This document shows positions 9,409 to 33,845 of a DNA stretch of 64,000 bases, one piece after another (positions within the stretch are counted from its first letter, which is position 1; every line of letters begins with the position of its first letter). Source of the DNA: a virus. The position numbers and the translations under genes were made by a program. The notes below the pieces were generated by a model. It searched no databases and had not been told where the DNA came from. It saw only the letters and a list, made by a program, of their open reading frames with translations. The stretch lies in IMG/VR virus record IMGVR_UViG_3300002026_000021; one strand, written 5' to 3'.

Positions 9409-9771
9409 TTACCCCCAATGATTTCTTTGTATTGCAATATTCTCTAAAGCTTCTTGAATCCCCCAAGGAATTGAATTATCATCAGTTGAATCAATAACTA
9501 ATACTTCTTTATAGTCTTTTTCATCTAGGTATATTTTAGTAGTATTACAAGAATAATTAAAATCTCTAACCCTATCAAAATAACTCTTAGAATTAATTGT
9601 ATAAATAGTACAAATTTCATCAACAGTTTCATTAAAAGTATCATCAATAATTTTAATTGATTCTATTTGTTTTTCTATAAATTCTCTTATTTGACCTTCA
9701 GTAAACTTCTTTGGGTCAAGAATAAAAGAACTAGAAGAACTGTTGCTAACAAATCCTAATCGTGTTTTCAT
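9409..9771 (-). CDS. paralog 4 of the MKTRLGFVSNSSSSSF family (120 aa)
   Basis: Conserved N-terminus. Confidence 0.6.
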   Translation of the reverse strand: MKTRLGFVSNSSSSSFILDPKKFTEGQIREFIEKQIESIKIIDDTFNETVDEICTIYTINSKSYFDRVRDFNYSCNTTKIYLDEKDYKEVLVIDSTDDNSIPWGIQEALENIAIQRNHWG

Positions 9772-10364
9772 TAGTGTGTCCTATATGCCGAAACAGTTAG
9801 GTTCATATCAGCGAATCCTCTTACACCTAAATCAGCAGAAGATACATATGAAGTAGTATTAGCTGATTTAAAATTCATTGATTGAGCTTCACCAAATACA
9901 TCAAAATTAGCACCTAAAAATACAAATTCCCAATTATACTTATCTTGCTGGTGTTTAATCTTTTCCCCTAATTCTTTTTTATCATTATAAGGGTAATTAG
10001 ATTGATTCTCTTGACCATCAGTCATAACTACAATCATTACTTTTTCTGGTCTATTAAACTCTTCTTCTTCAGATAATGCTAATCCAACTTCATCAATAGT
10101 TTTCCACATTGCTTCTAATAAAGCAGTACCACCAGAAGGACGATAATCTTTCTTAGTAAATTTATCAATAATTTGGATTGATATCCTATTCATTTGTTTT
10201 ATAATATTAGTATCAAATTGAATTAATGTAAACTTAGCGTCTCCTGGTAATTTCTTCTGTTCTTCAATAAAGGTGTTTAATCCACCGATGACATCTGATT
10301 CAGTTCCACCCATTGAACCAGACTTATCTAAAATTAATACTATTTCTGTTAATCCTTTCTTCAT
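9771..10364 (-). CDS. von Willebrand factor A (vWA) domain protein
   Basis: LILDKSGSMGG is the MIDAS DxSxS motif; a later Thr/Asp follows. Confidence 0.6.
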   Translation of the reverse strand: MKKGLTEIVLILDKSGSMGGTESDVIGGLNTFIEEQKKLPGDAKFTLIQFDTNIIKQMNRISIQIIDKFTKKDYRPSGGTALLEAMWKTIDEVGLALSEEEEFNRPEKVMIVVMTDGQENQSNYPYNDKKELGEKIKHQQDKYNWEFVFLGANFDVFGEAQSMNFKSANTTSYVSSADLGVRGFADMNLTVSAYRTH

Positions 10365-10419: not shown

Positions 10420-11091
10420 CTAATCCCAATGTAACATTTTTTCTAGTTCTTGAATTTCAAACTGTGATAAATTAGTTTCCATTAACTTTTGAGCTATATT
10501 AGTTTTATAACTCTCATCTCTATCTTCCCAATCCTGCAATATCTTTAATACCTCTAATGTAGCTATATGATACCCTTTCTGTAGATATTTAGATACACGA
10601 TATACTTGGGCAATAGGGCAATGAATATTCTTAATAACTAATTTTAAATGTTGTTCATCCTCAATAGAATCATCATCAGCAATAGCTTCTAAAACACCAT
10701 TAATAATACTAAAGATACCAAAACGAGCTATAGTAAAATCAAAGCTTTCCATGATTTCCTCTATAGAACCCTTAGCTACAATCCTTCCAGATACTTTAGG
10801 CTTAATTAATTGTAATGGTAACTTACCTTTAGCACAGAACCTATAAGTCTCTGCTACTTCTGATTCAAATTGTAATGAATATCCATTAGAACCCATACGA
10901 TTCTTAATGTTAGTAAATGATTCATCTGAAGGACAATAGATATCAATGTCCTCAGATACAATAGGTCGGTCCCGTGTTGAACAAGAATATCTAGCGAATC
11001 CCCCACAGATAAATCCATCATTTTTAATAATGTCTTTAAATAGATATTCTAGTACTTCTTTATTTCTAACGATATCAGTAGTAACAAACAT
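10420..11091 (-). CDS. hypothetical protein; possible minimal nucleotidyltransferase fold
   Basis: CGGFARYS...SEDIDIY resembles the GS-x(n)-DxD polymerase-beta-like NTase motif. Confidence 0.35.
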   Translation of the reverse strand: MFVTTDIVRNKEVLEYLFKDIIKNDGFICGGFARYSCSTRDRPIVSEDIDIYCPSDESFTNIKNRMGSNGYSLQFESEVAETYRFCAKGKLPLQLIKPKVSGRIVAKGSIEEIMESFDFTIARFGIFSIINGVLEAIADDDSIEDEQHLKLVIKNIHCPIAQVYRVSKYLQKGYHIATLEVLKILQDWEDRDESYKTNIAQKLMETNLSQFEIQELEKMLHWD

Positions 11092-11704: not shown

Positions 11705-12328
11705 TTAATCCTCCTTATCTTCTTCAGCCGATTCTAAATTTTCTAAGTATTTAATATACCCTAAACCCATAATAGATAAATCTTCAAAGGAAACAGAATC
11801 ATAGAGCTTGCAAGGGTAATAAATATCTTCAGATGACTTATACTTAGTAAAATCCTTAGAATAGAATCGTTCTGATTCTGCTAAAGGTTGAGTATTACAA
11901 CCTTTATATACTTCTAGCCTCTTTGTATCTAAATCAATAACATAGGCGTATTCACAGAATAATGAATCAGAAATAAAAGTAGTGTTATCTTCAAGTTCTC
12001 GAACGCCTTTATTACAAATTAAATCTAAGATACCAGAGCCAACATCTCTATGGAATTGAGGATAGTTCTCATGAAACTTCTTAGATACTCCCATATCAAC
12101 CATATCCGAATTAGGATTAGCTCCACACTCTATCCATTTATTTTTAATATCTTCTTCATTAGTAAATTTACAATCTCTAATAGCTAGAACAAACTTAGGT
12201 AAATCCATAGAATTAATAAACTTAACAATACTCTTACCCTGACCTGAGAAGTATCCATCCCATTGTCCATACTGAGCTACCTTAATCTGCTTGTCTAACA
12301 CTACCATAGTTAAATGTCTAGTTCCCAT
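11705..12328 (-). CDS. hypothetical protein (207 aa)
   Basis: ORF in track. Confidence 0.5.
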   Translation of the reverse strand: MGTRHLTMVVLDKQIKVAQYGQWDGYFSGQGKSIVKFINSMDLPKFVLAIRDCKFTNEEDIKNKWIECGANPNSDMVDMGVSKKFHENYPQFHRDVGSGILDLICNKGVRELEDNTTFISDSLFCEYAYVIDLDTKRLEVYKGCNTQPLAESERFYSKDFTKYKSSEDIYYPCKLYDSVSFEDLSIMGLGYIKYLENLESAEEDKED

Positions 12329-12773
12329 TTTGTTGCTCCTTATTCTTTCTAATCTCTCTAGCTCTCTTTAGATTCTCGGCCATTTTAAGTCTGTTTTCTT
12401 CAGACATTGGTTTTCTTACTTTCCTAACTTTCTTAACACTAGTCTCTTTGGTTTCTACATTAAAATATTTTGATAAGCAATTTTTAATCCACTCTACATT
12501 TTGCCAGAATCGTTTATCTACTATTTCTTTTTCTATTTTAGGTGAAAGTATGTAATTATGGTTAGAACGTAATACTGCTCTAATCTTAGGAATAAAGTCA
12601 AAAGCATCTAATTCCTGATTATCTATAACTAAGGTATATTTACCATTAACTAAACCTTTGGTAGGTTTAGTCTTCTTAGTTATAGAGCTAAGTAAAGGAA
12701 TTCCTAATGATAGTTTTTCTATCTTAGCTTTTTCTCTACCTAATTTTATTGCTAACTTATGTTGCTCAGTCAT
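12318..12773 (-). CDS. hypothetical basic protein (151 aa)
   Basis: ORF in track; Lys-rich (KKVRKVRK); consensus promoter immediately upstream at 12790-12818. Confidence 0.5.
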   Translation of the reverse strand: MTEQHKLAIKLGREKAKIEKLSLGIPLLSSITKKTKPTKGLVNGKYTLVIDNQELDAFDFIPKIRAVLRSNHNYILSPKIEKEIVDKRFWQNVEWIKNCLSKYFNVETKETSVKKVRKVRKPMSEENRLKMAENLKRAREIRKNKEQQNGN

Positions 12774-12789
12774 AATTACCTCTATGATA

Positions 12790-12818
12790 AGTATATATCA
12801 TTATTCAAGTTTTGTCAA
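12790..12818 (-). promoter_or_regulatory. sigma70-type promoter TTGACA-N17-TATACT
   Basis: Minus strand: TTGACAAAACTTGAATAATGATATATACT; lies just beyond the distal end of the CRISPR array. Confidence 0.55.
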
Positions 12819-12831
12819 TAGAAAATATAAT

Positions 12832-13332
12832 AATTCCACGATTAACGTGATATACCTATGATGCTGAAATTTCCTATTGATAGGAGCCTTTATTTCAATC
12901 CACGATTTAACGTGAGGATGTATCTCATTATTGAAATAGGAAAAAAATGAGTAATGGTTGTCTCAATCCACGTTAAATCGTGAGGTAGCAACCTAAAGAA
13001 GTTCTTAAAACCTATTTTGATGTGCTTATTCCAATCCACGATTAACGTGATGTAGCAACAAGGATGTGTATTTTGACATTACTTCATTTTATGGGTTCCA
13101 ATCCACGACAAAGCGTGAGGTAGCAACTGCAACCCGTCATTTGAGTTAGCATGTTTATACAAGTCTCAATCCACGCTTGCGCGTGAGGATACATCCGTAT
13201 GTATACTGATTACGTGACAACCTATCTGTAGTCTCAATCCACGACAAAGCGTGAGGATACATCATAAACGGAACGATTTTGATTGTCGGTGATGAGCTGT
13301 CTCAATCCACGACAAAGCGTGAGGATACATCT
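12832..13332 (-). CRISPR. CRISPR array: 7 well-formed repeats plus 1 degenerate terminal repeat, 7 spacers (~36 bp each), period 68 bp; transcribed on the minus strand from the leader at 13333-13513
   Basis: Repeats begin at 12893, 12961, 13029, 13096, 13164, 13232 and 13300. Consensus on the plus strand is TCTCAATCCACGACAAAGCGTGAGGATACATC; the last two copies are identical. Repeats degenerate towards 12832, the leader-distal (oldest) end. The stems CCACG/CGTG(A)GG are conserved while the loop varies (compensatory pattern). Confidence 0.92.
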
Positions 13333-13513
13333 CTATCACTCTTAATTCCTTTATCTACTTAACTTTATTATTCTACTTCCGCGAACCTCATTTACAATAG
13401 ACAATATATAGTATGTCAAAGACCTTAATACTATTATAAATATTTATACTATAACATTTTATTAAACTCCGAGAACCTATTAACTTTTTCTGTTAGCTAT
13501 AGGTTCGCGCTAC
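13333..13513 (-). promoter_or_regulatory. CRISPR leader (AT-rich), with a candidate promoter (TTGACA-N17-TGTAAA, minus strand, near 13395-13425) and a 10-bp inverted repeat (GCGAACCT / AGGTTCGC) at both leader ends
   Basis: About 80% AT; TTGACA read on the minus strand from plus 'tgtcaa' at ~13420; inverted repeats at 13378-13390 and 13500-13513. Confidence 0.45.
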
Positions 13514-13978
13514 TTAGTAAATAAAAAATAACCCAAATCCTAATCGTTTAGACCGACCATACCCTGATACTAACATCTCAGAAAACTTCTTATTATCTTT
13601 TACTTTAATAGTACCAGAAATAAAGTAAGGGTAAAAATAATGATTCTTTTCTCTAATATAAATTGGTTCTTCTTTAGTGATATCACAATTTAGTACTTCA
13701 AAGATATCATTACTATTTAACTTTTCATATACACTATCATGGTCAATAGGTGTCTCAAAATTATCACTACGTTTAACTCCATTAAAACGTAAACAAAAAT
13801 CTAATACATCATTATCATTATACTTAGTTTCTACTTCAATACCTTTAGTACCTTGCTTCTCTGATAATACATAACAAATATTATCAATATCTATCCATAA
13901 TGCTTTTGAATCAAATTTAGCTACTTCCTGATGAGTTAAGTAATACGTTTCTTTCATAGGAACTGAATGTAAATACAT
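13514..13978 (-). CDS. cas6: miniature Cas6/Cas5c-like RAMP endoribonuclease (candidate crRNA-processing enzyme)
   Basis: C-terminal GYGRSKRLGFG matches the RAMP G-rich loop consensus GxGxxxxxGxG; the gene is immediately adjacent to the leader/array on the same strand; only 154 aa. Confidence 0.6.
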   Translation of the reverse strand: MYLHSVPMKETYYLTHQEVAKFDSKALWIDIDNICYVLSEKQGTKGIEVETKYNDNDVLDFCLRFNGVKRSDNFETPIDHDSVYEKLNSNDIFEVLNCDITKEEPIYIREKNHYFYPYFISGTIKVKDNKKFSEMLVSGYGRSKRLGFGLFFIY

Positions 13979-13979
13979 A

Positions 13980-14981
13980 TTATTTCTTCTCCTTTTTCTT
14001 CAATTCTCTTTCCTCTTTTCTAGCTAATATCTGTTCAAATTTATATTTGTTCAGATTAGTCGGTTCAAATGGATAGATATTAGGCTTGAAGTCTTCATAA
14101 ATATCTTCAATACTCTTAATATACACCATACCACCTTCTAATATATTAGCAAATCCTGGCCCATTTGTCAAGTCCTCATAGAACTTATCATCAATAGTTA
14201 ATTCAATATTACCATTAGTATCAATAACAGTAAAAGGGAATAATCCAACTTGACGAGCAACTAAAGGATTTCCATCCTGAGTCATTCCATTCATAGCCTT
14301 TATTATACCATTTTCATTAGGGCCTAAAATTAAATCTCTAAGTGGTTCTTTATATTTAAGTTTCCTTACAGTAATATTATTATCCTGTTCTGTTACTGCC
14401 CGAATATCACTATTACTTTTGTTCTTATTAAGAATAGTAAATATCTTAGCAATAGGAACTGACCTATAATTATCTCCAACATACTTTTTAGCTAATTCTG
14501 TAAATGCTTTTAATTCAGTTTCATTGAAATAATTTAAGAATCTTTCCCAAGTTAATATACCACAATTTACTTGATAAGGAGTATCACCATAAATAATAAT
14601 ATTACTTGATGGGAGCCATTGATTATTCCCTTTTAAATACTTCCTAAATTGAATAGTCATTTTAGTAGGGATAGTTGTTAATGTTATTCTAGCTGTTTTA
14701 GCAGTAGTCAATGCATTTATATCAAACTCTCTTTTAGTCCTATAGATTGCTTTCCTTGAGATAGTTTGCTTATTAGTTAATACACTTAATACGTTTGCCA
14801 TAGTATGAATATCTATATAGGGAGCGTACTCCTTAGTATTAGGAACAAAGGTCTTAAACTCCCTATTATATTTAGAATAAGAATCTTTGGGAATCCTAGA
14901 ACCCTTCATTACTCCTATAAACCCACACTCTTCAAAATGGATAACCTCTGCATTAGTAAATCTTAAAGTAAGTTTTCTCAT
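13980..14981 (-). CDS. cas5: Cas5-like (possibly Cas5/Cas8-substituting) Cascade subunit, 333 aa
   Basis: Position between the Cas7-like gene and the Cas6-like gene; N-terminus MRKLTLRFTNAEV resembles Cas5 N-termini. The assignment rests on context only. Confidence 0.4.
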   Translation of the reverse strand: MRKLTLRFTNAEVIHFEECGFIGVMKGSRIPKDSYSKYNREFKTFVPNTKEYAPYIDIHTMANVLSVLTNKQTISRKAIYRTKREFDINALTTAKTARITLTTIPTKMTIQFRKYLKGNNQWLPSSNIIIYGDTPYQVNCGILTWERFLNYFNETELKAFTELAKKYVGDNYRSVPIAKIFTILNKNKSNSDIRAVTEQDNNITVRKLKYKEPLRDLILGPNENGIIKAMNGMTQDGNPLVARQVGLFPFTVIDTNGNIELTIDDKFYEDLTNGPGFANILEGGMVYIKSIEDIYEDFKPNIYPFEPTNLNKYKFEQILARKEERELKKKEKK

Positions 14982-15037: not shown

Positions 15038-16087
15038 CTATTCAGTTAAACCACGAAGCTTAACATAGAAAGGAAAAGGTTCAATAAAGATTTCCTCAAT
15101 ATCTGTAGTTGTCTCAAGTTTAATAAAGTCATTACTACTAAAAAGATTACTATTCTTAGTAGGATTAGTAATACCCTGATATTCTAATGATGAGGTTTTA
15201 GCATATCCATTATTTCTAGTAATCATAACAGAAGCAATATTATTGAACAAATATTTAATAAGATAATTAATCTGTTCTATAGTTAATAGGATACCAAGCT
15301 GTTCAGCTTTTTCAACTTGATTTGTTCTATAGAAATATCCTGCCTGAGTATTTTTATCAATATCTAACCCAGTATTCTCTTTGAATGAAGCAATAAATAC
15401 ATCAATATTATCAGGAAGTAAACTCATACTTCCAAACCTATCATCCATATCAATAAACATTAAATTCTGAAGATTGATAGCACCTTGGTATTCATAAGTA
15501 ATTTCCCCAACAGTTTCAATAGTAAATATTGCATTATTATCTTTATCCCCATTATTGGAATTAAATAAGAATGATGGAAAAGCATTGTTTGATTGAATTG
15601 CATGAGAAACAGATACTACATTTCCTCTTTTGAGTAAATCATTCTCTTTAAGAATTTCTGTATCTTCAACATTTTCAACTTCTTCAACATTATCAGTATT
15701 TTTTTCCTTCTTATTACTTTTCTCCTTCTTACTATTAGTTTCCATATATCCTCGGAGTAACATCCCTGGATGCCCAATTAGTTTAGCTAAATATTCATTC
15801 TTACCTCTATAGGAACGAATATAATTCGGCATATCCTTTTCAAAGATGCTATGACGAAGGCAATTACTAGAGATAATTATCTTTCCTTTAAGTTCATCTC
15901 CAATCTTTTCCTTAACATGCTTTGCTACTTTAATATTAGTTACTTTCTTATGCTTAACATAAGGAACTTTGAATCCATAAGACTTAGTATAAAAATCTTC
16001 CTCCTCAAAAGGAATTCCTCCATTGTAATTAACAATACCATTACCGTTCATAGTACCCTTAAAGAAAATTGTCTTAACTCCATTCAT
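15038..16087 (-). CDS. cas7: Cas7-like Cascade backbone subunit, 349 aa
   Basis: N-terminal Gly/Asn-rich segment FFKGTMNGNGIVNYNGG resembles the Cas7 (Csd2/Csh2-type) N-terminal motif; position directly after cas3; followed by an intrinsic-terminator-like hairpin. Confidence 0.45.
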   Translation of the reverse strand: MNGVKTIFFKGTMNGNGIVNYNGGIPFEEEDFYTKSYGFKVPYVKHKKVTNIKVAKHVKEKIGDELKGKIIISSNCLRHSIFEKDMPNYIRSYRGKNEYLAKLIGHPGMLLRGYMETNSKKEKSNKKEKNTDNVEEVENVEDTEILKENDLLKRGNVVSVSHAIQSNNAFPSFLFNSNNGDKDNNAIFTIETVGEITYEYQGAINLQNLMFIDMDDRFGSMSLLPDNIDVFIASFKENTGLDIDKNTQAGYFYRTNQVEKAEQLGILLTIEQINYLIKYLFNNIASVMITRNNGYAKTSSLEYQGITNPTKNSNLFSSNDFIKLETTTDIEEIFIEPFPFYVKLRGLTE

Positions 16088-20811: not shown

Positions 20812-20892
20812 TACTAGAGTATATTATATATTTTAATTAATGTCAATAAGATAATAAAAAAAAGCATAGTAAATTAATACTATGCTTTAATA

Positions 20893-20965
20893 TCGGAATG
20901 AGTTGACTCGAACAACCGACTGCCCCGCCCCAAACGGGGAACTCTACCAACTGAGTTACATTCCG
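20893..20965 (-). tRNA. tRNA-Pro (anticodon UGG)
   Basis: Folded by hand: acceptor CGGAATG/CATTCCG, D-arm ACTC-AGTTGGTA-GAGT, anticodon arm CCCCG-TTTGGGG-CGGGG, T-arm GGTTG-TTCGAGT-CAACT. Confidence 0.8.
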
Positions 20966-21159
20966 ATTATTTAATTACAACTAAATTATCTATTAATTCA
21001 TCTGTATCTATTTCTTCGTTCCAGTATTGAATTAATAATTCTTTATTCTTAGCATACTGAAGGAACTTTTTATATGTTTTTCATAGGAAGTTCCATGTGT
21101 TCAGCTTCGGTAAGGATAGAATCTTCATCAAGTTTACGCATTTTAACCTCTTGAGTAAT

Positions 21160-21188
21160 AGTATAGCATATTTAATTAGTATTGTCAA
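21160..21188 (-). promoter_or_regulatory. sigma70-type promoter TTGACA-N17-TATACT
   Basis: Minus strand: TTGACAATACTAATTAAATATGCTATACT. Confidence 0.55.
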
Positions 21189-21294
21189 TAGGTAAAAATA
21201 GAAATAAAATAATAGGAGATGTAGGAGTTGGACCTACTGTGGCAGTTTATAAGACTGCTCCTCAAAACCGTCGAGGACACCTCCAATGTTAACT

Positions 21295-21522
21295 TCAATC
21301 AAATTCTGCTGACTCTAAATTATCTTCCCAACCCTCTCTTTCATCCTCATCCATATCTTCCCAATCACAACCTGTAGGCTCATCAAAATCTTGGTCATCA
21401 GTACTAGGTTCTTTATGAAACTCATTACAGCCACAACCACTACAGGCTAACCAGATTAAATCTGCTTCACTAATAGTACAAGCAAACTCATGAGAACCAC
21501 ATTCATTACAAACCCAGTCCAT
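21295..21522 (-). CDS. Zn-ribbon / acidic protein (75 aa)
   Basis: CNEC ... CSGCGC; acidic C-terminus. Confidence 0.5.
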   Translation of the reverse strand: MDWVCNECGSHEFACTISEADLIWLACSGCGCNEFHKEPSTDDQDFDEPTGCDWEDMDEDEREGWEDNLESAEFD

Positions 21523-21614
21523 AATTATTTAACTCCTAATAAAAACTGACTTAATGAATTATACTACATTAAGTCAGTTTTGTCAATATTGTTACTGATT
21601 ATTATTTGATTCTA

Positions 21615-21690
21615 GTGCTAACTAGAAGGATTTGAACCTTCAACAAGCACGGTCTAAACGTGCGGTGTCTGCATTGCACCATAGTGGCAT
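21615..21690 (-). tRNA. tRNA-like gene (perfect T-arm GAAGG-TTCAAAT-CCTTC and an anticodon-like arm GCACG-TTTAGAC-CGTGC, anticodon UAG); the acceptor and D stems do not fold canonically
   Basis: Consensus promoter at ~21714-21745 lies immediately upstream on the minus strand; I could not close the acceptor stem by hand. Confidence 0.4.
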
Positions 21691-21751
21691 TCACTCTACA
21701 ATAATAGTATATACTAAATAACCAGTATTGTCAATTAAAATCGTAAAAATA

Positions 21752-22144
21752 TTAACCATAAATATCTACAAGAGCTTGTTCACTCATGTAGTTATCACAT
21801 TTCCGTATCTTTGAACCCTCAGTGTAAAATTTTAATTCATCTTTTAAGTATTCAATAAAATGAACAGAAAACTCTGCATCGGAGGATTCTAAAAAATCAT
21901 CATCATAGAACATAAACTCTTCACAATACTCATCAATATTTTCTTCTATCTCTGATAGAGGTTTTTGTAAAATAGTATTTATTTTTGCTATATGATATTC
22001 AAAATACTCCATTACAGACTTAGGTGAGCCAAACCCTCCATCAGAAGTAGCAAAGTGTTTTCCAGATACTATTACATAACCAAAGCTATCTTCTTCATCA
22101 AAATCTTCATATGGACCTAAAACAAACCAAAAGGCATTTTTCAT
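21752..22144 (-). CDS. hypothetical acidic protein (130 aa)
   Basis: ORF in track. Confidence 0.5.
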   Translation of the reverse strand: MKNAFWFVLGPYEDFDEEDSFGYVIVSGKHFATSDGGFGSPKSVMEYFEYHIAKINTILQKPLSEIEENIDEYCEEFMFYDDDFLESSDAEFSVHFIEYLKDELKFYTEGSKIRKCDNYMSEQALVDIYG

Positions 22145-22237
22145 TGGTATCCCCTAATAAAGTTAATCTAAGATTAGTATACTAATAAATTCTTTTCTTG
22201 TCAACTACCTTTTAAGATTATCAACAAGAAAAGAAGC

Positions 22238-23020
22238 TTACTCATAGAAATCTTTAATACCATCATACACATCTTTAATGTAAATCTTTCTAACAATATC
22301 TCTTTTATCAGCACCCCAATCATCATCATAATAATTGTATCTTAAAGACTTTGCTTTATACCATTTGGGCCAAAGATGAGCAGAATTAAATTCTTGATGA
22401 AGCCTTTGGTATTTAGAAACACTTTCATCATCATATACCTTTCTTCTATAAATATAGTTTACTTCTACCTTTTTAGAAAACTTCCATAAAGGTTCTTTAC
22501 AACGATATTCATAGTGTTCTGATAATCTCCAACCAGGAACATCTCTTCTAACCTTATTAAAAAAGGTTTTGAGAGGACAGGGAAGTTTTTCATATTCATT
22601 CTCAGTAAGCTTCTTAAAGCCTAAAGGTGCTTCAACTTTCTTTTCACCTTTTCTAGGCTTTCTTACAAATAATCTTCCTGAATAAGAATAGTTATCAAAG
22701 GTAAAGGAGTTCTTATTAGTACTAGGGTATACTAAAAACTTTCTATCGTAAGAATACTGATGAATAGTAATTAATTCTATTAGTTCTTTAAGTTTAGCCC
22801 CCTCGCTAGTTTTACTAATGTCAGGTCTAACAACTAAATACCGATGATACCCATTAAATATAGGAGGGTTAACATCCACCCATTCATAGTTATCAGTAGA
22901 CATCTTTCTAAAATGACATAAATCTCGTTCTTTTTTAAGAATTAATTTATCTTTATTAAGATATTTTAATCTTAAACCTCTTTTTAAGACTCTTTCTTCT
23001 TTATCCATTTGATTTACCAC
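22238..23020 (-). CDS. hypothetical protein (260 aa)
   Basis: ORF in track. Confidence 0.5.
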   Translation of the reverse strand: MVNQMDKEERVLKRGLRLKYLNKDKLILKKERDLCHFRKMSTDNYEWVDVNPPIFNGYHRYLVVRPDISKTSEGAKLKELIELITIHQYSYDRKFLVYPSTNKNSFTFDNYSYSGRLFVRKPRKGEKKVEAPLGFKKLTENEYEKLPCPLKTFFNKVRRDVPGWRLSEHYEYRCKEPLWKFSKKVEVNYIYRRKVYDDESVSKYQRLHQEFNSAHLWPKWYKAKSLRYNYYDDDWGADKRDIVRKIYIKDVYDGIKDFYE

Positions 23021-23292
23021 CTTACAGCTTAATCATAATGGACCTCCTTAATTAGAAATATAGTGCCGGAACCATGAGTCGCACATGGATATAGGGATTT
23101 TCAGTCCCCCCTTTTACTCTTAAAGTATTCTGGCATATGATTATTTTGAAGTCTGCCTATAGCAGTTTAGCTTTTTACGTTACTTATTACTGGTGCATTA
23201 TCGTCATCAACAGTTAGTAACAACTTCAAAGCCGAATTACGAGGTATCTAGGTACTGCCCCTAGCTCCACGGATTAACAGTCCGTACCCTCA

Positions 23293-23829
23293 CTATGACG
23301 GGCCTATACCTCTTATTTCTTCGTGCAATTCTCTATGACAATTCGCACAAACTAAAATACATTTATCAACTTCCTCTAAACTTCTTTTCAGATTTTTTAT
23401 ATCTCCTGAAGAGATACCAAAATCTTTTTGATTAGAATCTTTATGATGAAATTCTAATGCTGTAACTGATTTTGAATACCCACAAATTTCACATTTCCCA
23501 CCCTTATACTCTACAAGAAACTTTTTTCTTCTTTTTCTAAAATCCTCTATAATTTTAGACTTAGATTTTGCGGGGTCTTTACATAATTTACAAACCCCTG
23601 ATACATTATTGTAACTAATTTCTTTATTACATTTGGAACAAAATCTCTTATCTTTTCTTTTTAAAGAAAGACTTATTTTAGCTTTAACCTCTTCTGTTCT
23701 TTCCCTTTTATTAGCACACGATTGAGAACAAAATCGTGGTATTGGATTCTTTTTTAAAGACCTTTTATCCTTTCTCCAATCTTCTAAAAACTCTTTTTTA
23801 CATTTCTCACAAGTAAACATTGGAACCAC
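23293..23829 (-). CDS. HNH homing endonuclease (Cys-rich, zinc-binding)
   Basis: EFHHKDSNQKD ... LVCANCHRELH is an HNH motif; multiple CxxC pairs; embedded in the tRNA cluster. Confidence 0.7.
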   Translation of the reverse strand: MVPMFTCEKCKKEFLEDWRKDKRSLKKNPIPRFCSQSCANKRERTEEVKAKISLSLKRKDKRFCSKCNKEISYNNVSGVCKLCKDPAKSKSKIIEDFRKRRKKFLVEYKGGKCEICGYSKSVTALEFHHKDSNQKDFGISSGDIKNLKRSLEEVDKCILVCANCHRELHEEIRGIGPS

Positions 23830-23882
23830 CTATATAAGCATATACTTAATTAGTATATCTCATTAAGATAGGTTCAAAAATA

Positions 23883-23970
23883 GGTGACTAATGGGATTCA
23901 AACCCATGATGAAGGCTTTCGCCTTAGTGATTCCACAGACCACTCCAATCGCTCACTCTGGCATAGTCAC
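23883..23970 (-). tRNA. type II (long variable arm) tRNA, isotype uncertain (anticodon loop reads CUGUGGA)
   Basis: Acceptor GTGACTA/TAGTCAC; T-arm ATGGG-TTTGAAT-CCCAT; ~19-nt variable arm. Confidence 0.5.
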
Positions 23971-23971
23971 A

Positions 23972-24044
23972 AGCGGTATATCAGGTTCGAACTGATGACA
24001 ACCAATTTGGAAGACTGGAACTCTACCAACTGAGCTAATACCGC
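23972..24044 (-). tRNA. tRNA-Gly (anticodon UCC)
   Basis: Acceptor GCGGTAT/ATACCGC, D-arm GCTC-AGTTGGTA-GAGT, anticodon arm CCAGT-CTTCCAA-ATTGG, T-arm ATCAG-TTCGAAC-CTGAT. Confidence 0.8.
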
Positions 24045-24053
24045 AAAAAAAAT

Positions 24054-24127
24054 TAGTTCCGGTCAGATTTGAACTGACGATAACCGCATAGAAAGTGCGG
24101 TGGCTTAAACCACTCGCCTACGGAACC
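24054..24127 (-). tRNA. tRNA-Glu (anticodon UUC)
   Basis: Acceptor GGTTCCG/CGGAACT, anticodon arm CCGCA-CTTTCTA-TGCGG, T-arm GTCAG-TTCAAAT-CTGAC. Confidence 0.75.
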
Positions 24128-24223
24128 ATTAAACAATAGCAAGTACTCCCGAAGGGTCTTGCACCCTCACTGTTAGGATTTTGAGTCCTATGCCTCTGCT
24201 TTTGGGCTACGGGAGCGTCCTAG

Positions 24224-24302
24224 CCAAGGTGACAAGATTCGAACTTGCATACTCCAATTACTCGGTTAACGACCGTTTAGAAGACGGTTGAGGTACACCT
24301 TG
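24224..24302 (-). tRNA. tRNA-like gene, isotype undetermined
   Basis: Acceptor CAAGGTG/CACCTTG and T-arm GCAAG-TTCGAAT-CTTGT are clear; the D and anticodon arms were not resolved by hand. Confidence 0.45.
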
Positions 24303-24478
24303 ATACTCTACATCTGGACCGTGTGGGTAGCGACCCCTACGTTAACCTTTTCGGTTAGAGCGGAACCTTCCGTCGGCCCTCAGTTAGTGAATTAAAAAAC
24401 GTAGGACGAGAGCATCTCGGTCCCCTTGCCATCTAGGTCATTTTCTAACTCACTATAACAAGTATATACTAATTATCA

Positions 24479-24772
24479 CTAACTGTCAATAGGTTCAGTA
24501 CCGTTTTTCTGATTAATTCCTAAGAAAGTTTTTAATCCATCAGAAATAGAAGTAGGACTAGCATCAGGGTTATTATCAATATACTCAATAGTTTTCATTA
24601 TCATTGAATAAAATGAATTAACAGCTTCATTCATACTAACCATCTGTTTAATAGCTTCATCAGGTTTCTCTTTAACTAACTCAGTAACAGTATCTATCAA
24701 TGATTTAGGTTTAGGCATAAAGTCTGACTCTAATACCTTTCCTGAAGGAAATTCAATAACTGTTGCTGGCAA
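24479..24772 (-). CDS. hypothetical protein (97 aa)
   Basis: ORF in track. Confidence 0.5.
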   Translation of the reverse strand: MPATVIEFPSGKVLESDFMPKPKSLIDTVTELVKEKPDEAIKQMVSMNEAVNSFYSMIMKTIEYIDNNPDASPTSISDGLKTFLGINQKNGTEPIDS

Positions 24773-24775
24773 TTT

Positions 24776-25036
24776 TTACTCCTCTAAAGTAGATACTTTA
24801 AATTTATTATCTTCTGACCAATTAAACATTGGTTTATCCTTACACCAGCTTTCTTCTGTTTTAGTTACATTATTTTTACAAACCCATTCATACTTTCTTC
24901 TTCCATATTTATCAATTCCACCTATATCTTGAGCATAGAAGCATTTTCTATTAGGACAATTTGAATCATACACATAAATATCTTTTTCTTTTACTAGTGG
25001 ATACCATTTGTTGTCTTTTTCTAATTTTAATTTCAT
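24776..25036 (-). CDS. hypothetical protein (86 aa)
   Basis: ORF in track; tandem palindromic repeats immediately upstream. Confidence 0.5.
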   Translation of the reverse strand: MKLKLEKDNKWYPLVKEKDIYVYDSNCPNRKCFYAQDIGGIDKYGRRKYEWVCKNNVTKTEESWCKDKPMFNWSEDNKFKVSTLEE

Positions 25037-25053
25037 TATAAACTCCTTATATT

Positions 25054-25112
25054 ATACCCTATCAGGTATAATTATTACTAATATAACCAAATTATACCCT
25101 ATCAGGTATAAA
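25054..25112. promoter_or_regulatory. two copies of a 20-bp palindromic element ATTATACCCTATCAGGTATA (candidate operator pair) upstream of ORF 24776-25036
   Basis: Direct repeat at 25054-25073 and 25093-25112; each copy contains the inverted repeat TATACC ... GGTATA. Confidence 0.45.
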
Positions 25113-25176
25113 AACGGGATTAGGGAGAATTGGACTCCCATTATCGGCGTGACAAGCCGACGTAATAACCACTATA
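25105..25176 (-). tRNA. tRNA-Asp (anticodon GUC)
   Basis: Acceptor GGGATTA/TAATCCC, anticodon arm TCGGC-TTGTCAC-GCCGA, T-arm GGGAG-TCCAATT-CTCCC. Confidence 0.75.
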
Positions 25177-25180
25177 CGAT

Positions 25181-25267
25181 AATCCCAATAAGCAGGAAGT
25201 TGGATTTGAACCAACGCGAAGGTTTCCCTTACTAGCTTACAAGGCTAGTCTAATCGGCCAGACTATA
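25181..25267 (-). tRNA. tRNA-Tyr (anticodon GUA), type II
   Basis: Acceptor GCAGGAA/TTCCTGC, anticodon arm CTAGC-CTTGTAA-GCTAG, long variable arm, T-arm GTTGG-TTCAAAT-CCAAC. Confidence 0.75.
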
Positions 25268-25283
25268 GGATTCCTGCATTTAC

Positions 25284-25520
25284 TTATTCTAAAAGTTTCT
25301 TAATCTTATATACAGGTAGTGACCCTTCTATCCTACTAGTAATCTTATCATTATCTTTAATAATAATAGTAGGGAATGAAGATATTCCTAATTTAATTAA
25401 AACCTTTTCATCATTTTCTGCATCAAGTTCATGAAAGGGAATTGACTCTTTAACTAAAGCTAACTTTAATGACTTACAAGGTGAACACCATTCTGCTGAA
25501 CAAATAGTTAGTGATTTCAT
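25284..25520 (-). CDS. glutaredoxin/NrdH-like thiol-disulfide redoxin
   Basis: WCSPCK is the CxxC active site near the N-terminus; 78 aa. Confidence 0.6.
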   Translation of the reverse strand: MKSLTICSAEWCSPCKSLKLALVKESIPFHELDAENDEKVLIKLGISSFPTIIIKDNDKITSRIEGSLPVYKIKKLLE

Positions 25521-25720
25521 TGTACTTCCTCATCATCCTCAGTATATTTCGATACCCACATTACTTCATCTTCGTCAATACCAGTTTTTAAACAAGTACC
25601 ATCAGTATTATGAACAACAATATAACCAATTTCTTCTCTAGTTAATAAAAGAGCTAAACTATCATAGGCTATACGTTTAAATACATCTAATTGCTCATCA
25701 TCTTCAATATGTATTTTCAT
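25517..25720 (-). CDS. hypothetical acidic protein (67 aa)
   Basis: ORF in track. Confidence 0.4.
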   Translation of the reverse strand: MKIHIEDDEQLDVFKRIAYDSLALLLTREEIGYIVVHNTDGTCLKTGIDEDEVMWVSKYTEDDEEVQ

Positions 25721-26001
25721 AATCCCTCTTTATACTTACACCCTAAATATATATGACCTTCTTTTTCTAAAACTTTTTCATCAAGACGTTTCCTTACTCC
25801 TGAACCTTCTGGAAAGGAAAGTTCTTCACAGCCCTTATATGGCATTCCAGTAGGATGAGAAAATCTGCTAGGCCAATTTATAGTACCTACTTTCTCTTCA
25901 GGACAAACACATTGATTACTACTACCAAATATTTCATTAGTCCTTTTTTCTCTACTTCTAAACCATTTACAATTAACTATTTTTTCCACCTTATCCTCCA
26001 A
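25717..26001 (-). CDS. hypothetical protein (94 aa)
   Basis: ORF in track. Confidence 0.45.
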   Translation of the reverse strand: MEDKVEKIVNCKWFRSREKRTNEIFGSSNQCVCPEEKVGTINWPSRFSHPTGMPYKGCEELSFPEGSGVRKRLDEKVLEKEGHIYLGCKYKEGL

Positions 26002-26149
26002 AAAAAGAAGTATAGAAGTTTCCTAGACCTTTACCATCAGGCTCATTACGCTCACAAAGGTATTATAGAGCTACTATAACAGCTTTGCTAATCATTGGCA
26101 TGAATCGACCTCACTTCAGAAACTCCCTAGTCGTTATATACTTCTTTAA

Positions 26150-26221
26150 CAGGCCCATAAGGATTCGAACCCTAACAAGCACTTTTGGAGAGTGCCGTGC
26201 TACCGTTAACACCATAGACCT
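26150..26221 (-). tRNA. tRNA-Trp (anticodon CCA)
   Basis: Acceptor AGGTCTA/TGGGCCT (two G-U pairs), U8, D-arm GTGT-TAACGGTA-GCAC, anticodon arm GCACT-CTCCAAA-AGTGC, T-arm TAGGG-TTCGAAT-CCTTA. Confidence 0.7.
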
Positions 26222-26229
26222 AAAATAAA

Positions 26230-26790
26230 GTAGAAGTGAATAACCCTAATGAGGTTATTCTATCGCATGGCACTCTGAGTATAAATCTATGCATCAATTT
26301 ATACAAGTCAGTAACCATTTGACCACTCTACTTCTTTATATAGCAGGAGAGGGTTCTGCCCCCTCTAGGAAAAATTTATGAGACTTTTCTGTGTCTAACA
26401 CTTCCTGCGACGTACTTAATACAAATTAAAAATAATACCAGTTTAATTAATTACCTAAGATAAACTGGCAAATCTGCTGACTTACGATTCAGACCGATAG
26501 TGAGCTTGTAGTTGCTTAGCATCCACAGAGGCTTTCAGTGTTTTACGTTCCCTTGTACTTCGGGCTAATAATTTATTAAGTTAAATAATCTTAACTACGA
26601 TACTGTAGGTGTTACCTCCCCGCCTTCGAGCTACGGGTTCCGCTTTTCCATATCTCGTCAGGGAACGCTGAGTTTAAAAGCTCAGATTGTGGAGGTGGAG
26701 GGTTATGACCCCTCGTCCGATGTAAACTGACCTTTCGTTTCGTTGGGCATTGCGTCGGCTACGTCTATCATCGTCGAATCAATTCACCCC
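26230..26790. ncRNA. ~560-bp ORF-free, relatively GC-rich, hairpin-dense region; candidate structured RNA(s)
   Basis: No ORF of 60 aa or more on either strand. Contains hairpins such as GTATAAAT...ATTTATAC and GCAGGAGAGGGTTCTGCCCCCTCTAGG, plus minus-strand motifs GGGUGAAUUGAUUCGACG and a T-arm-like GAGGG-GTCATAA-CCCTC. Confidence 0.35.
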
Positions 26791-27066
26791 CAATTTTCTT
26801 TTTCTCTTTAATAGAAATTCTAATAACCTTTTATTAAAGTCATTATTATTATTATACTTTAATGGTTTACTTAAAGTGCTTTTACAAGTACATGGAGTAT
26901 GACCACAACCAGGACATAACCCTTTCTTTAATCGTTCATCTACTTTTGGTGGTCTTCCAAACATAGAATCACAATTTCGATGAAAACAACCAGTACATAA
27001 ATCATAAGACATTACTCCTGATTTCTTAATACCTCTAGGTTTCCTAGCTTTTTTAAAACTATTCAT
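26779..27066 (-). CDS. Cys-rich small protein (95 aa)
   Basis: CTGCFHRNC ... CPGCGHTPCTC. Confidence 0.45.
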   Translation of the reverse strand: MNSFKKARKPRGIKKSGVMSYDLCTGCFHRNCDSMFGRPPKVDERLKKGLCPGCGHTPCTCKSTLSKPLKYNNNNDFNKRLLEFLLKRKRKLGVN

Positions 27067-27295
27067 ATTAATCTCCTAATAGGCGATACTGGTACTGCCC
27101 CAATACTTCTTGTTTATCAGACAAGCTTGCAAAACTTCTACAACAATCACCTAAGCTGTCCCATCATGGATAAAAATAGCTGAGATACACTATTGATTTA
27201 GAACGTTACTCATTTAAGTTCCTTCAATTTGAATTGAACAAATTCCAAGAGTGTCAAAAACTCTGATGCTTCCGTTACACCATGAAGGAATGTAG

Positions 27296-27368
27296 ACCCC
27301 CTGAATGGACTCAAACCATTGCATACTCGATTTGCAGTCGAGCGCATTATCATCTTTGCTACAGAGGG
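27296..27368 (-). tRNA. tRNA-Cys (anticodon GCA)
   Basis: Acceptor CCCTCTG/CAGGGGG, U8-A9, anticodon arm CTCGA-CTGCAAA-TCGAG, T-arm AATGG-TTTGAGT-CCATT. Confidence 0.7.
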
Positions 27369-27437
27369 TTGAAAAATATATAGTATGTCAAATAACTATT
27401 ATTAAACAATAAACTTAATTATTGTTTCTATTAAGTA

Positions 27438-27528
27438 CGGAGAGAGTGGGTCTTGAAACCACACACCGTATCCCTACGATTACTACTAGTTTTCAGGACT
27501 AGCCCCTTGCCTTTAGGGTTACCTCTCC
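27438..27528 (-). tRNA. tRNA-Ser (anticodon UGA), type II
   Basis: Acceptor GGAGAGG/TCTCTCC, anticodon arm CTAGT-CCTGAAA-ACTAG, ~23-nt variable arm with hairpin CGTA-GGGA-TACG. Confidence 0.6.
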
Positions 27529-27533
27529 AAATA

Positions 27534-27614
27534 TGGGTAGAGAAGGATTTGCACCTCCGAAGCCGAAGCGAGGCGTTTACAGCGCCCTGGTTTTGACTAC
27601 TTACCTATCTACCC
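27534..27614 (-). tRNA. type II tRNA; anticodon loop CTGTAAA suggests a second tRNA-Tyr (GUA), or a mis-folded Leu/Ser
   Basis: Acceptor GGGTAGA/TCTACCC, 3-bp D stem, anticodon arm GGGCG-CTGTAAA-CGCCT, 12-nt variable region, T-arm GGAGG-TGCAAAT-CCTTC. Confidence 0.5.
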
Positions 27615-27616
27615 AT

Positions 27617-27690
27617 TAATAAACTCTGAACCATCCTAGAATCGAACTAGGAACAAACAGATTAAAGGTCTGTTGCTCTAACCATTTGAG
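27617..27690 (-). tRNA. tRNA-Lys (anticodon UUU)
   Basis: Acceptor GGACCAT/ATGGTTC, D-arm GCTC ... GAGC, anticodon arm ACAGA-CCTTTAA-TCTGT (C33 is unusual), T-arm TCCTAG-TTCGATT-CTAGGA. Confidence 0.6.
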
Positions 27691-27699
27691 CTAATGGTC

Positions 27700-27785
27700 C
27701 TTAACACCCCAGAGCGTGAAGGAATTGGACCTTCGCTATCTTTCAATAGGCCATAGATTAGCAATCTAGCACAGTTACCACTCTG
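27700..27785 (-). tRNA. tRNA-Ser (anticodon GCU), type II
   Basis: Acceptor AGAGCGT/ACGCTCT, D-arm ACAG-AGTGGTAA-CTGT, anticodon arm CTAGA-TTGCTAA-TCTAT, 19-nt variable arm, T-arm GAAGG-TCCAATT-CCTTC. Confidence 0.65.
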
Positions 27786-27905
27786 TCAACGCTCTATCAT
27801 AAGTATATACCGAGATATTAAAAATGTCAATAGAAATCCCTCAAAAGAATACAGTTATTATCATTAACAACTGTATTATTAATTAGTAACTCTTGTTTAC
27901 TATAG

Positions 27906-33269: not shown

Positions 33270-33845
33270 TTATTTAAATTTTCTATCATTATTATTGCCG
33301 TATGCTAATAGTAATGGATGCTTTAACTCCTCTTCAATAGAGAATACATAATCAAGATAAGCTTGTGTTCTTACAGGCAATTTCCAGCCTTTTTTAATAT
33401 ACTTTCTATATTGAGTTAACCCCATATTATAAGAAGCTACAGCAGAATACCAAGAACCAGAATCCTTCCTTAATTGTGCTAAATGCTGAATTCCTACATT
33501 CATAGCAACTTTCCATTGCCAAGGGTCTACAGGCTTTCCATTATTATAAGTAACAGCAAAGTATTCTAAATATTGAGAGTTTAATTGCATAATACCCCTA
33601 TCTACAGTTCCATTAGTATTATAGTTATATGCTTTAGAACTCCATTTAGATTCCCATTTAATTAATCTATATGCATATTTAACAGGAACATTATACCTTA
33701 AACATATAGAAACGAAATAATCTCCCATACCTGAAGGTACTTCAAACATTACTATTTGGTTATGGTCATATATTTTATAACGTTCAATAGAATTGACTGA
33801 AACCCCTATTGTGAGTAATATAACTAACATTATAACTTTTTGCAT
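33270..33845 (-). CDS. lytic transglycosylase (SLT domain) with N-terminal signal/TM segment
   Basis: ES (KWESKWS), GIMQLNSQY and ASYNMG SLT motifs; hydrophobic N-terminus VIMLVILLTIGVSV. Confidence 0.7.
   Translation of the reverse strand: MQKVIMLVILLTIGVSVNSIERYKIYDHNQIVMFEVPSGMGDYFVSICLRYNVPVKYAYRLIKWESKWSSKAYNYNTNGTVDRGIMQLNSQYLEYFAVTYNNGKPVDPWQWKVAMNVGIQHLAQLRKDSGSWYSAVASYNMGLTQYRKYIKKGWKLPVRTQAYLDYVFSIEEELKHPLLLAYGNNNDRKFK

Follow-up and report, generated by a model that had tools for sequence, protein, structure and literature searches.

The subject of this paper is a CRISPR array, together with its adjoining cas genes, on 64,000 nucleotides (nt) of viral DNA (IMG/VR record IMGVR_UViG_3300002026_000021), a stretch that we call the window. 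The array occupies the minus strand at 12832-13331 and consists of seven repeats of 32-33 nt, one degenerate terminal copy and seven spacers; immediately upstream of it and on the same strand lie the genes for Cas3, a Cas7fv-like protein, a protein of 333 amino acids (aa) and a Cas6e-like protein. The element carrying the array is an uncultured phage: the window has ~31% G+C, co-oriented short open reading frames (ORFs) and families known from PHROG only, and its phage-type genes include a ribonucleotide reductase, an RNA ligase, a family A DNA polymerase (less than 25% identical to that of any annotated phage) and 15 transfer RNAs (tRNAs). The stretch belongs to the 69.4-kb contig MIS_1001026 of JGI sample 3300001765, which recurs under NCBI WGS JFJP01; MIS presumably stands for Middle Island Sinkhole, which makes a mat in Lake Huron the likely source.

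The stretch at 12832-13331 is a real CRISPR array. On plus-strand coordinates, a 33-nt direct repeat family starts at 12892, 12960, 13095, 13163, 13231 and 13299, with a copy shorter by one base at 13028-13059 and a truncated, degenerate copy at 12832-12856. The spacers are seven unique 35-mers, and the repeats follow one another at the near-constant spacing generic to such arrays (68, 68, 67, 68, 68 and 68 base pairs (bp) from start to start). A preliminary description had recognised the same copies, each placed one base further on, which reflects a choice of boundary (32+36 against 33+35); the strict 68-bp period that it gave is nearly right, one interval being 67 bp, at the 13028 copy with its 5-nt loop. 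It had also held that the oldest copy is truncated and degenerate and that the two newest are identical, and both statements stand: the terminal repeat R8 lacks the 8-nt tail, and R1 equals R2. Tandem Repeats Finder did not report the array because its spacers are unique. An independent JGI assembly shows no difference in any of the leader and array bases compared, and a Logan assembly agrees too, ending within the first repeat, as is expected when R1 and R2 are identical. The parts of the array, from the leader outwards, are as follows.

12832-13331, minus strand: CRISPR array of eight repeats (the last degenerate) and seven spacers, predicted to be transcribed from high to low coordinates
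13299-13331, minus strand: repeat R1, leader-proximal, GATGTATCC-UCACG-CUUUGU-CGUGG-AUUGAGAC
13322-13318 and 13311-13307, minus strand: stem arms of R1, with the loop at 13317-13312 and the 8-nt tail at 13306-13299
13264-13298, minus strand: spacer 1, 35 nt, 40% G+C, no target found
13231-13263, minus strand: repeat R2, identical to R1
13196-13230, minus strand: spacer 2, 35 nt, no target found
13163-13195, minus strand: repeat R3, whose loop region CGCAAG gives a 6-bp stem with a GCAA tetraloop, -8.8 kcal/mol
13128-13162, minus strand: spacer 3, 35 nt, no target found
13095-13127, minus strand: repeat R4, with 5' block GTTGCTACC, loop CUUUGU and tail AUUGGAAC
13060-13094, minus strand: spacer 4, 35 nt
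13028-13059, minus strand: repeat R5, 32 nt, with 5' block GTTGCTACA, 5-nt loop UUAAU and tail AUUGGAAU
12993-13027, minus strand: spacer 5, 35 nt
12960-12992, minus strand: repeat R6, with loop AUUUAA and tail AUUGAGAC
12925-12959, minus strand: spacer 6, 35 nt, 23% G+C
12892-12924, minus strand: repeat R7, with 5' block GATACATCC, loop UUAAAU (the reverse complement of the R6 loop) and tail AUUGAAAU
12857-12891, minus strand: spacer 7, 35 nt
12832-12856, minus strand: repeat R8, terminal and degenerate, GGUAUA-UCACG-UUAAU-CGUGG-AAUU, with the hairpin intact and the 8-nt tail lost

The R8 hairpin was also scored as terminator-like in a promoter and terminator scan. The four cas genes upstream are these.

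13514-13978, minus strand: miniature Cas6e-type RAMP, 154 aa, with a Y13-x-x-H16-Q motif and a C-terminal G-x-G-R-S-K-R-L-G-F-G loop; predicted endoribonuclease of the precursor CRISPR RNA (crRNA)
13980-14981, minus strand: 333-aa protein at the Cas5fv position, homologous to its counterpart at this position in all relatives
15038-16087, minus strand: Cas7fv-like backbone subunit, 349 aa
16089-18317, minus strand: Cas3, 742 aa, with an N-terminal HD nuclease and a DExH helicase, without a Cas2 fusion

All four of these ORFs are intact, with catalytic motifs present. In Cas3, the HD domain scores 44.3 bits against TIGR01596 (cutoff 43.45), from residue ~15, while DEAD, ResIII and Cas3-like_C_2 exceed their Pfam cutoffs and the best PADLOC match is Cas3fv (5.7e-41); the combination of HD nuclease and superfamily-2 helicase domains that defines type I is thus present. 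The Cas7 protein matches the NCBIfam Cas7fv model NF040577 at E = 1.8e-20 (73.5 bits, where the curated cutoff is 200) and the solved structure 5o6u of Cas7fv at E = 1.6e-10; proteins of this kind are already covered by the Pfam 'Cas7fv-like' family PF28157. As for the RAMP, it exceeds the cutoff of the Pfam family PF08798 CRISPR_assoc/Cse3 (30.8 bits, cutoff 25) and is also matched by PADLOC Cas6e, and it falls under that of NCBIfam TIGR01907 (25.5, cutoff 45.2).

We focus first on how the repeats differ from one another. Apart from R1 and R2, pairs of repeats are identical at only 20-28 of 33 positions, and 15 of the 33 columns vary: six of nine in the 5' block, all six in the loop (the preliminary description had noted that the loop differs between copies), three of eight in the tail and none of the ten in the stem. 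If 15 variable columns fell at random, all of them would miss ten stem columns with P = 4.7e-4, or ~0.01 once 18 possible placements of the frame are allowed for; just one of the 18 possible 5-6-5 frames is free of variation. On the plus strand the invariant arms read CCACG and CGTGA, that is, UCACG and CGUGG in the minus-strand RNA, so that the earlier claim of an invariant CCACG / CGTG(A)GG is upheld except for its extra GG, the 13028 copy having CGTGATG. The 5' block, on the other hand, switches in runs along the array (R1-R3, R4-R6 and R7), R4-R6 having GTTGCTAC(C/A) with the loops CUUUGU, UUAAU and AUUUAA. A switch of this outer block between older and newer repeats had been described as one between two forms, and there are in fact three, which on the plus strand are GATGTATC (12892), GTAGCAAC (12960, 13028 and 13095) and GATACATC (13163, 13231 and 13299).

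Folding of the minus-strand repeat RNA, which the preliminary description had proposed, does form the UCACG/CGUGG hairpin, though a weak one (-4.3 to -8.8 kcal/mol, z from +0.4 to -1.4). The bulged extension of the stem that had been proposed (CC...G(A)GG) belongs to the plus-strand fold and is lost in the minus-strand RNA. Within these repeats, the R6 and R7 loops AUUUAA and UUAAAU are exact reverse complements, as are the 5' blocks GATGTATC and GATACATC (12892-12992 and 13163-13331), and such pairs may be the footprint of template-switch inversion at quasi-palindromes. As evidence for template switching we set the loop pair (ATTTAA/TTAAAT) aside as a curiosity, with P only ~0.03 and no such pair in the related array L159 described below.

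Word-seeded homology searches with the RAMP and the 333-aa protein returned only self-matches, megablast of the locus against annotated phages matched nothing, and searches of IMG/VR via Cas7 and via the RAMP alignment found no related locus; all four window Cas proteins are singletons at 90% identity. An exhaustive HMMER search did recover a family of RAMPs of 149-177 aa. Among their loci, L157 (the closest sibling, RAMP 47% identical) has the identical four-gene cassette plan on a contig that stops 108 nt past the RAMP gene; L159 (34%) lies on a 113.8-kb contig and has a split Cas3; and in L162 (35%), whose Cas7 is 23-26% identical to annotated Cas7fv, genes for a P4-type primase, a DNA polymerase and an excisionase-like protein come next. 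In L158 (1032-1223) and L161 (455-830), the RAMP gene has downstream of it, in place of an array, a conserved ORF (...YVADRV(E/D)RMM...); any array of theirs would lie elsewhere. The small RAMPs of these last two loci are 39-42% identical, and a strong promoter-like site precedes the downstream ORF of L158.

Two of the sibling loci carry arrays that can be compared with that of the window. Repeats of L159 (8687-9976) have the form GTATCTCT-CCGCG-(5-7-nt loop)-CGCGG-(C/U/A)UUGUAAG, with the tail written CUUGUAAG; all 20 differ from one another, mainly in the loop, adjacent repeats share at most 18 identical bases, and the stem is kept throughout. Repeats of L162 (5266-6902) have the form GTGATGTT-CCCCGC-GCGA-GCGGGG-GAUGGAAG, with a stem-loop that we take to be almost that of Escherichia coli I-E; the eight leader-proximal repeats are identical, with variation rising distally, which suggests recent spacer acquisition, perhaps in trans. 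The three arrays are built alike, with a 16-nt hairpin between an 8-9-nt 5' flank and an 8-nt tail, and their 39 distinct repeats align in a single register with the hairpin in the same 16 columns, followed by 8 nt. In this alignment, 93.6% of the cells of a 6-bp stem make standard pairs; in controls with the 3' arm shifted by 1-3 columns, 31-53% do so. Covariation scores 0.368, compared with 0.04-0.12 in the slid controls, and none of 500 shuffles reaches the observed pairing or score. Pair 12-23 is G-C in 20 repeats, C-G in 12, A-U in six and U-G in one, and the inner five pairs are unpaired in just one of 195 cells. The two arms change together from array to array (UCACG/CGUGG, CCGCG/CGCGG, CCCCGC/GCGGGG), and wobble changes within arrays (U-G, G-U) still pair. 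This covariation gives good, though not overwhelming, support to the hairpin. The earlier proposal of selection for an RNA hairpin recognised by a Cas6-type enzyme gains from it, as it does from the invariance of the stem and from the adjoining Cas6e-type gene.

The same evidence bears on a reading in which UCACG and CGUGGAUUG matter as sequence, being ancestral protein-contact motifs of I-C or I-E type, and their pairing is incidental. The lack of covariation within the window array and the unremarkable folding energy agree with it, and the pattern CACG-N6-CGTGGATTGRRAC, which corresponds to the window stem and tail, occurs in at least 120 bacterial arrays of several phyla (L030-L149), where CACG lies in the loop of another stem. 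It would not explain why both arms co-vary in the sibling arrays, why wobble variants pair or why the slid registers pair so poorly, and Cas6e enzymes bind stem-loops (PMC4937334); we regard it as very unlikely.

Heterogeneity of this degree could also mean that array and cassette are a decaying relic whose repeats have diverged with loss of function, a reading with which the absence of any spacer target, assignable promoter or adaptation gene in our searches agrees. Neutral decay, however, is expected equally in stem and loop columns, whereas in the window the variation misses the stem entirely and L159 behaves alike; the terminal repeat keeps its hairpin, and the cas ORFs are intact. A relic thus seems to us improbable. 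Saturation of the loop by neutral change would imply spacers equally old, yet the stems remain under selection. The source of the loop variability may instead be loop-specific mutagenesis, the formation of mosaic arrays by recombination between sibling phages (as the runs of 5' blocks would allow) or selection for non-identical repeats where spacers cannot be re-acquired. Because L162 has its eight identical leader-proximal repeats, such diversification is not universal.

What, then, would act on the hairpin? Over its whole length, the profile of the RAMP family can be aligned with E. coli CasE (4qyz_K; residues 1-159 with 1-195, E = 9.9e-11) and more weakly with Thermus Cse3 structures (E about 1e-7, over the C-terminal two-thirds). 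His16, invariant in all ten family members, aligns to the histidine of CasE DLYQLHQ, presumably its catalytic His20, and the family has a C-terminal glycine-rich loop, G-x-G-x-x-K-x-x-G-F-G. In all three arrays the stem ends exactly 8 nt before the end of the repeat. In type I-E, the cut made by Cas6e falls at the 3' base of the repeat stem, so that the crRNA gains a 5' handle of 8 nt, and the enzyme remains on the 3' hairpin (PMC4937334). Since the RAMP family aligns with CasE and keeps the histidine at LHQ, cleavage of Cas6e type with AUUGAGAC as 5' handle appears to be the best reading, and the conserved hairpin is most likely what the adjacent miniature nuclease recognises and cuts. Cutting in this style predicts crRNAs of 68 nt that would start AUUGAGAC or, for older spacers, AUUGGAAC, AUUGGAAU or AUUGAAAU. 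In both the window and L159 the last repeat keeps its stem-loop and loses its tail, which such cutting would explain: the last crRNA would still need a hairpin at its 3' end, and the tail would serve no purpose.

The repeat also resembles that of bacterial type I-C systems. The look-alike bacterial repeat is GTCGCCCCTCACGCAGGGGCGTGGATTGAAAC, and the sole such locus that we checked, L080, is canonical type I-C. The window repeat is identical to I-C at 23 of 33 positions, including TCACGC and CGTGGATTGA-AC, and agrees in repeat length (32-33 nt) and period (65-68 bp). One might thus propose that the phage array serves a type I-C system of the host, as a viral mini-array that borrows host Cas proteins: the 3' 13 nt, CGUGGAUUGAGAC, is one position off the CGUGGAUUGAAAC end of the look-alike repeats, a 35-nt spacer with a 33-nt repeat is typical of their arrays, and viral arrays with host-type repeats are documented (PMC11656645). 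But the G+C-rich I-C stem arms CGCCCC/GGGGCG are absent, CACG sits in the I-C loop, and the sole stem of the window repeat ends 8 nt from the end of the repeat, whereas that of I-C does so at 11 nt. Furthermore, L080 queries for Cas5c, Cas8c and Cas7c gave no tblastn match at E < 1 in the window, the array adjoins a Cas6e-type nuclease and a full effector cassette of its own, and L159 and L162 carry, beside the same cassette, repeats that are unlike those of I-C and resemble those of I-E. Borrowing of a host system is therefore highly improbable, and a type I-C identity based on the likeness of the repeat is ruled out by the stem position, the missing I-C cas genes and the sibling repeats. We regard the likeness as due to common descent or to convergent tails and do not count the window repeat as a member of the I-C group. 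No Rfam family, the CRISPR direct-repeat ones included, matched the repeat at E <= 10.

Between the RAMP gene and the first repeat lies a leader with the following elements.

13332-13513, minus strand: leader, 182 bp, from the RAMP stop codon to R1; the leader of L159 is equally long
13470-13509, minus strand: conserved inverted repeat CGCGAACCU...AGGUUCUCG, from 4 nt past the RAMP stop codon
13414-13419, minus strand: TTGACA box within a 16-nt block, ATTAAGGTCTTTGACA, common to L157; no canonical -10
13380-13388, minus strand: third copy of the motif, AGGUUCGCG, ~50 nt before R1
13341-13351, minus strand: AAGGAATTAAG block, 10 nt before R1, common to L159

An AT-rich 180-bp leader had been described; the leader is indeed there, and at 72% A+T, against 68.9% for the window, it is barely enriched. 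The TTGACA box reported within it is likewise present, on the minus strand at 13419-13414, and its role as a promoter gains no support, as no acceptable -10 lies at 16-18 nt; the 16-nt block around the box is identical in L157, and L159 and L162 lack the box. Of the sigma-70-like sites in this region, the best (TTGACA-17-TATACT, 11 of 12 positions) is at 12818-12790 on the minus strand, beyond the array and facing the ORF at 12318-12773. Transcription of the array by read-through from the cas operon is possible.

The leader inverted repeat noted earlier, CGCGAACCT (13509-13501) and AGGTTCGCG (13388-13380) on the minus strand, is real, and a closer partner, AGGTTCTCG at 13478-13470, gives a tighter hairpin. 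In four loci (the window, L157, L159 and L162), CGCGAACC, ~22 nt and then GGTTCGCG start a few bases past the RAMP stop codon (8480-8519 in L157, 8510-8551 in L159); the outer 8 bp never change and one inner pair shows a compensated change, in leaders that are otherwise poorly conserved. A further (G)GTTCGC copy stands at the same relative position in the three complete leaders (8633-8639 in L159), ~50 nt before R1 in the window and in L159. The element could be an RNA hairpin, either an attenuator or a processing signal, or an operator for a regulator; an RNA hairpin and a palindromic protein-binding site are not separable here because the shared pairs never vary. The AAGGAATTAAG block is common to two leaders whose RAMPs are just 34% identical (the first L159 repeat being at 8687), and a possible role is to mark the junction of leader and repeat, although a signal of that kind would be unexpected where Cas1-Cas2 is missing.

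Transcription on the minus strand, co-directional with the cas genes, had been proposed, and the same order of cas6, leader and array in three loci supports it, together with leader motifs at conserved distances on the high-coordinate side, an 8-nt tail in three arrays and the degenerate copy at the low-coordinate end. Were the array transcribed on the plus strand, the functional repeat would be GUCUCAAUCCACG...CGUGAGGAUACAUC, and some copies do fold slightly better in this sense (the 12960 copy, for instance, reaches -5.8 against -4.4 kcal/mol, with a bulged stem of 7 bp). The minus-strand features just named speak against it, however, and no strong divergent-gene promoter lies on the low-coordinate side, where the only strong promoter-like site points away from the array; we consider this orientation extremely unlikely.

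Adaptation genes were sought in several ways. By tblastn the window contains no Cas1, Cas2 or convincing Cas4, and neither Cas1 nor Cas2 is among the 25 of 36 matched families listed from a Pfam scan of 101 window ORFs; precomputed Pfam tables show no cas1 or cas2 near L157 and L159, and the eight L162 ORFs scanned include none. A 191-aa ORF at 33270-33845 weakly resembles Cas4 (E = 0.001 in tblastn with an I-C Cas4); most probably it encodes a phage nuclease of the general PD-(D/E)XK kind and has no part in adaptation.

The system can be compared with two known subtypes. Repeats of type I-F are 28 nt long and those of type I-E 29 nt. With type I-Fv (I-F2), known from Shewanella putrefaciens CN-32, Acinetobacter and Legionella plasmids, the locus shares the order cas3, cas7fv, a protein of ~335 aa, cas6 and array, a homologous Cas7 and a Cas3 that scores best on the Cas3fv model; moreover, neither a large nor a small subunit is recognisable in the window, which agrees with the three-protein Cascade of I-Fv (PMC4937334). 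It differs, on the other hand, in that the window has neither cas1 nor a Cas2-Cas3 fusion, its Cas3 measuring 742 aa against 983-995 aa in annotated I-Fv; in that the processing enzyme is of Cas6e type and 154 aa long, not Cas6f (Csy4); in its 33-nt repeat and 35-nt spacer, against an I-Fv crRNA of 60 nt with a 32-nt spacer (PMC4937334); in that the NCBIfam scores of this comparison all stay under their curated cutoffs; and in being phage-borne. The 333-aa protein has no significant similarity to Cas5fv. Three defining features of I-Fv thus fail in the window: Cas6f with its 28-nt repeat, Cas1 with a Cas2-3 fusion, and a detectable Cas5fv. Likeness to type I-E lies in the RAMP, through its full-length alignment with CasE, and in the plan of the repeat (5' flank, stem-loop, 8-nt tail). 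The RAMP is, however, ~45 residues shorter than CasE (154 against 199 aa), Cse1, Cse2, Cas7e and Cas5e are not present in the window, and the stem has 5 bp and is A/U-rich, in a 33-nt repeat. We would describe the system as type I, closest to I-Fv, with an I-Fv-like backbone, a mini-Cas6e and an I-E-style repeat, and without adaptation genes in the window.

A second set of loci, whose Cas7 proteins are 25-29% identical to that of the window, has cas3, a cas7fv-like gene, a 280-325-aa protein and a canonical Cas6 of 224-246 aa (PF01881), with 36-nt repeats ending ...GGAAT(T/C)ACAAC; none shows cas1 or cas2. These lie among small uncharacterised ORFs, with HNH or intein/LAGLIDADG-type genes in two of them. 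Their same-position protein is homologous to the 333-aa protein (hhalign 95.9%, E = 5e-9), whereas the window RAMP has no homology to their canonical Cas6 outside the glycine-rich tail. Since the two clades have the backbone in common while the type of Cas6 and the type of repeat differ in step, the alignments indicate that a crRNA-processing module (Cas6 and repeat) was swapped within one effector family. In this sister clade, the L151 array (12207-12843; phage-borne, with canonical Cas6 and 36-nt repeats) contains an internally duplicated block of five spacers, and the L153 and L154 arrays decay strongly towards the distal end.

We have considered whether Cas3, a Cas7fv-like protein, protein X, a mini-Cas6e of 150-175 aa and an I-E-style repeat without Cas1/Cas2 make up a distinct subtype confined to phages and mobile elements, whose loops have been diversified for a reason, possibly by hairpin-loop-targeted mutation such as template switching or as protection from recombination between repeats in an array unable to re-acquire spacers. 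We regard this as rather unlikely. We did not find this combination of modules, or the heterogeneity of the repeats, in the searchable literature, whose coverage of surveys of virus-encoded systems is incomplete, and an earlier description is possible.

Taking these data together, we consider it likely that the array supplies the guide RNAs of a type I CRISPR-Cas module for interference, which the phage carries without adaptation genes. The observations call for no new mechanism. Transcription of the minus strand would start in the 182-bp leader or reach the array by read-through from the cas operon. Each repeat would then fold into the hairpin of UCACG, a 5-6-nt loop and CGUGG, which the 154-aa RAMP, by analogy with Cas6e, would bind and cut at its 3' base, probably staying bound. 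The products would be crRNAs of ~68 nt, made up of the 8-nt 5' handle AUUGAGAC, the 35-nt spacer and a 3' handle of 25 nt with the hairpin at its end. By analogy with I-E and I-Fv, about six Cas7fv-like subunits would cover the spacer, the 333-aa protein would cap the 5' handle, and Cas3, with its HD and helicase domains, would degrade matched DNA. Without cas1 and cas2, the repeats would not be re-copied through acquisition; they would have drifted or recombined apart, and the stem would be invariant, with the loop and part of the flanks variable, because just the positions needed for processing and loading stay fixed. We infer the start of transcription, the site of cleavage, the composition of the complex, its activity and its targets.

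A number of results weigh against this interpretation. First of all, the hairpin in isolation is no stabler than shuffled sequence (z of ~0 for R1); the stem shows no variation inside the window array, which alone thus cannot tell recognition of structure from recognition of sequence, and the covariation comes from three lineages plus wobble changes within arrays. Second, promoter-like sites in the region stand at the level of chance (6, against 5.3 in shuffles). Third, the 333-aa protein has no NCBIfam or PADLOC Cas5fv match, its family reaches a probability of only 3.4% against two annotated Cas5fv proteins in hhalign, and its AlphaFold single-sequence model (pLDDT 31.0) is too poor for a fold search, as is the AF2 single-sequence model of the RAMP (pLDDT 39.5). 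The family profile of the 333-aa protein likewise gave nothing significant against Protein Data Bank sequences; a structural relationship with Cas5fv is possible. Fourth, the negative result for cas1 and cas2 covers 64 kb of a contig of ~69 kb that is possibly partial itself. Finally, the seven spacers have no credible match in annotated phages, plasmids, the window or the sibling and related loci, and spacers 1-3, searched against IMG/VR with every sixth base left free, have no match there. The search of phages, plasmids and the window itself that the preliminary description had called for has thus yielded neither an external target nor a self-target.

In L162, the spacers have 58% G+C against 45% for the locus, and one of them agrees with Xanthomonas phage Rb1 in 29 of 31 nt (E = 8e-3), a weak hint of conflict between phages. 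Elsewhere in the window, the 15 tRNA genes, all on the minus strand, lie at 20892-27796 with short ORFs between them. At ~42000-44000, beside the family A DNA polymerase gene (43819-45867), the gene strand changes from minus to plus and the cumulative GC skew has its minimum; replication may originate here, or transcription diverge. Just past the array, on its downstream side, are weak precomputed Pfam matches to Gad2 (10420-11091) and VWA (9771-10364), and the stretch at 1195-1953 encodes a DNA N6/N4 methylase; a part in defence or counter-defence is possible for all of these.

Other phages are known to carry CRISPR-Cas loci, among them metagenomic ones whose systems lack an adaptation or a nuclease module. 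The Vibrio phage ICP1 has a complete I-F system including its adaptation module, loss of that module is a described pattern in virus-encoded systems, and most reported phage CRISPR systems are in genomes over 200 kb (PMC11656645). The present locus is like the virus-encoded systems in lying on a phage genome and, as far as the window goes, in having no adaptation module; it differs from ICP1, which has one, and its contig measures ~70 kb against >200 kb. A likeness to the system of cyanophage CL131 was considered and ruled out, that locus being type V-U2.

Our understanding of what this locus means starts from the repeats, whose heterogeneity amounts to a natural mutational scan of a crRNA repeat for a Cas6e-type enzyme and its Cascade: the stem, AUUG and the A at tail position 7 are apparently needed, while the loop and much of the 5' flank are apparently dispensable. 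The cassette is compact, with a surveillance complex of 154, 333 and 349 aa and a Cas3 of 742 aa, which is relevant to the engineering of a minimal Cascade, and the 154-aa RAMP may be among the smallest Cas6e-type nucleases. Furthermore, with this locus a phage contig of ~70 kb, not demonstrably jumbo, joins the short list of those with nuclease-competent type I systems, and the sibling loci and the conserved leader motifs provide concrete handles for experiment.

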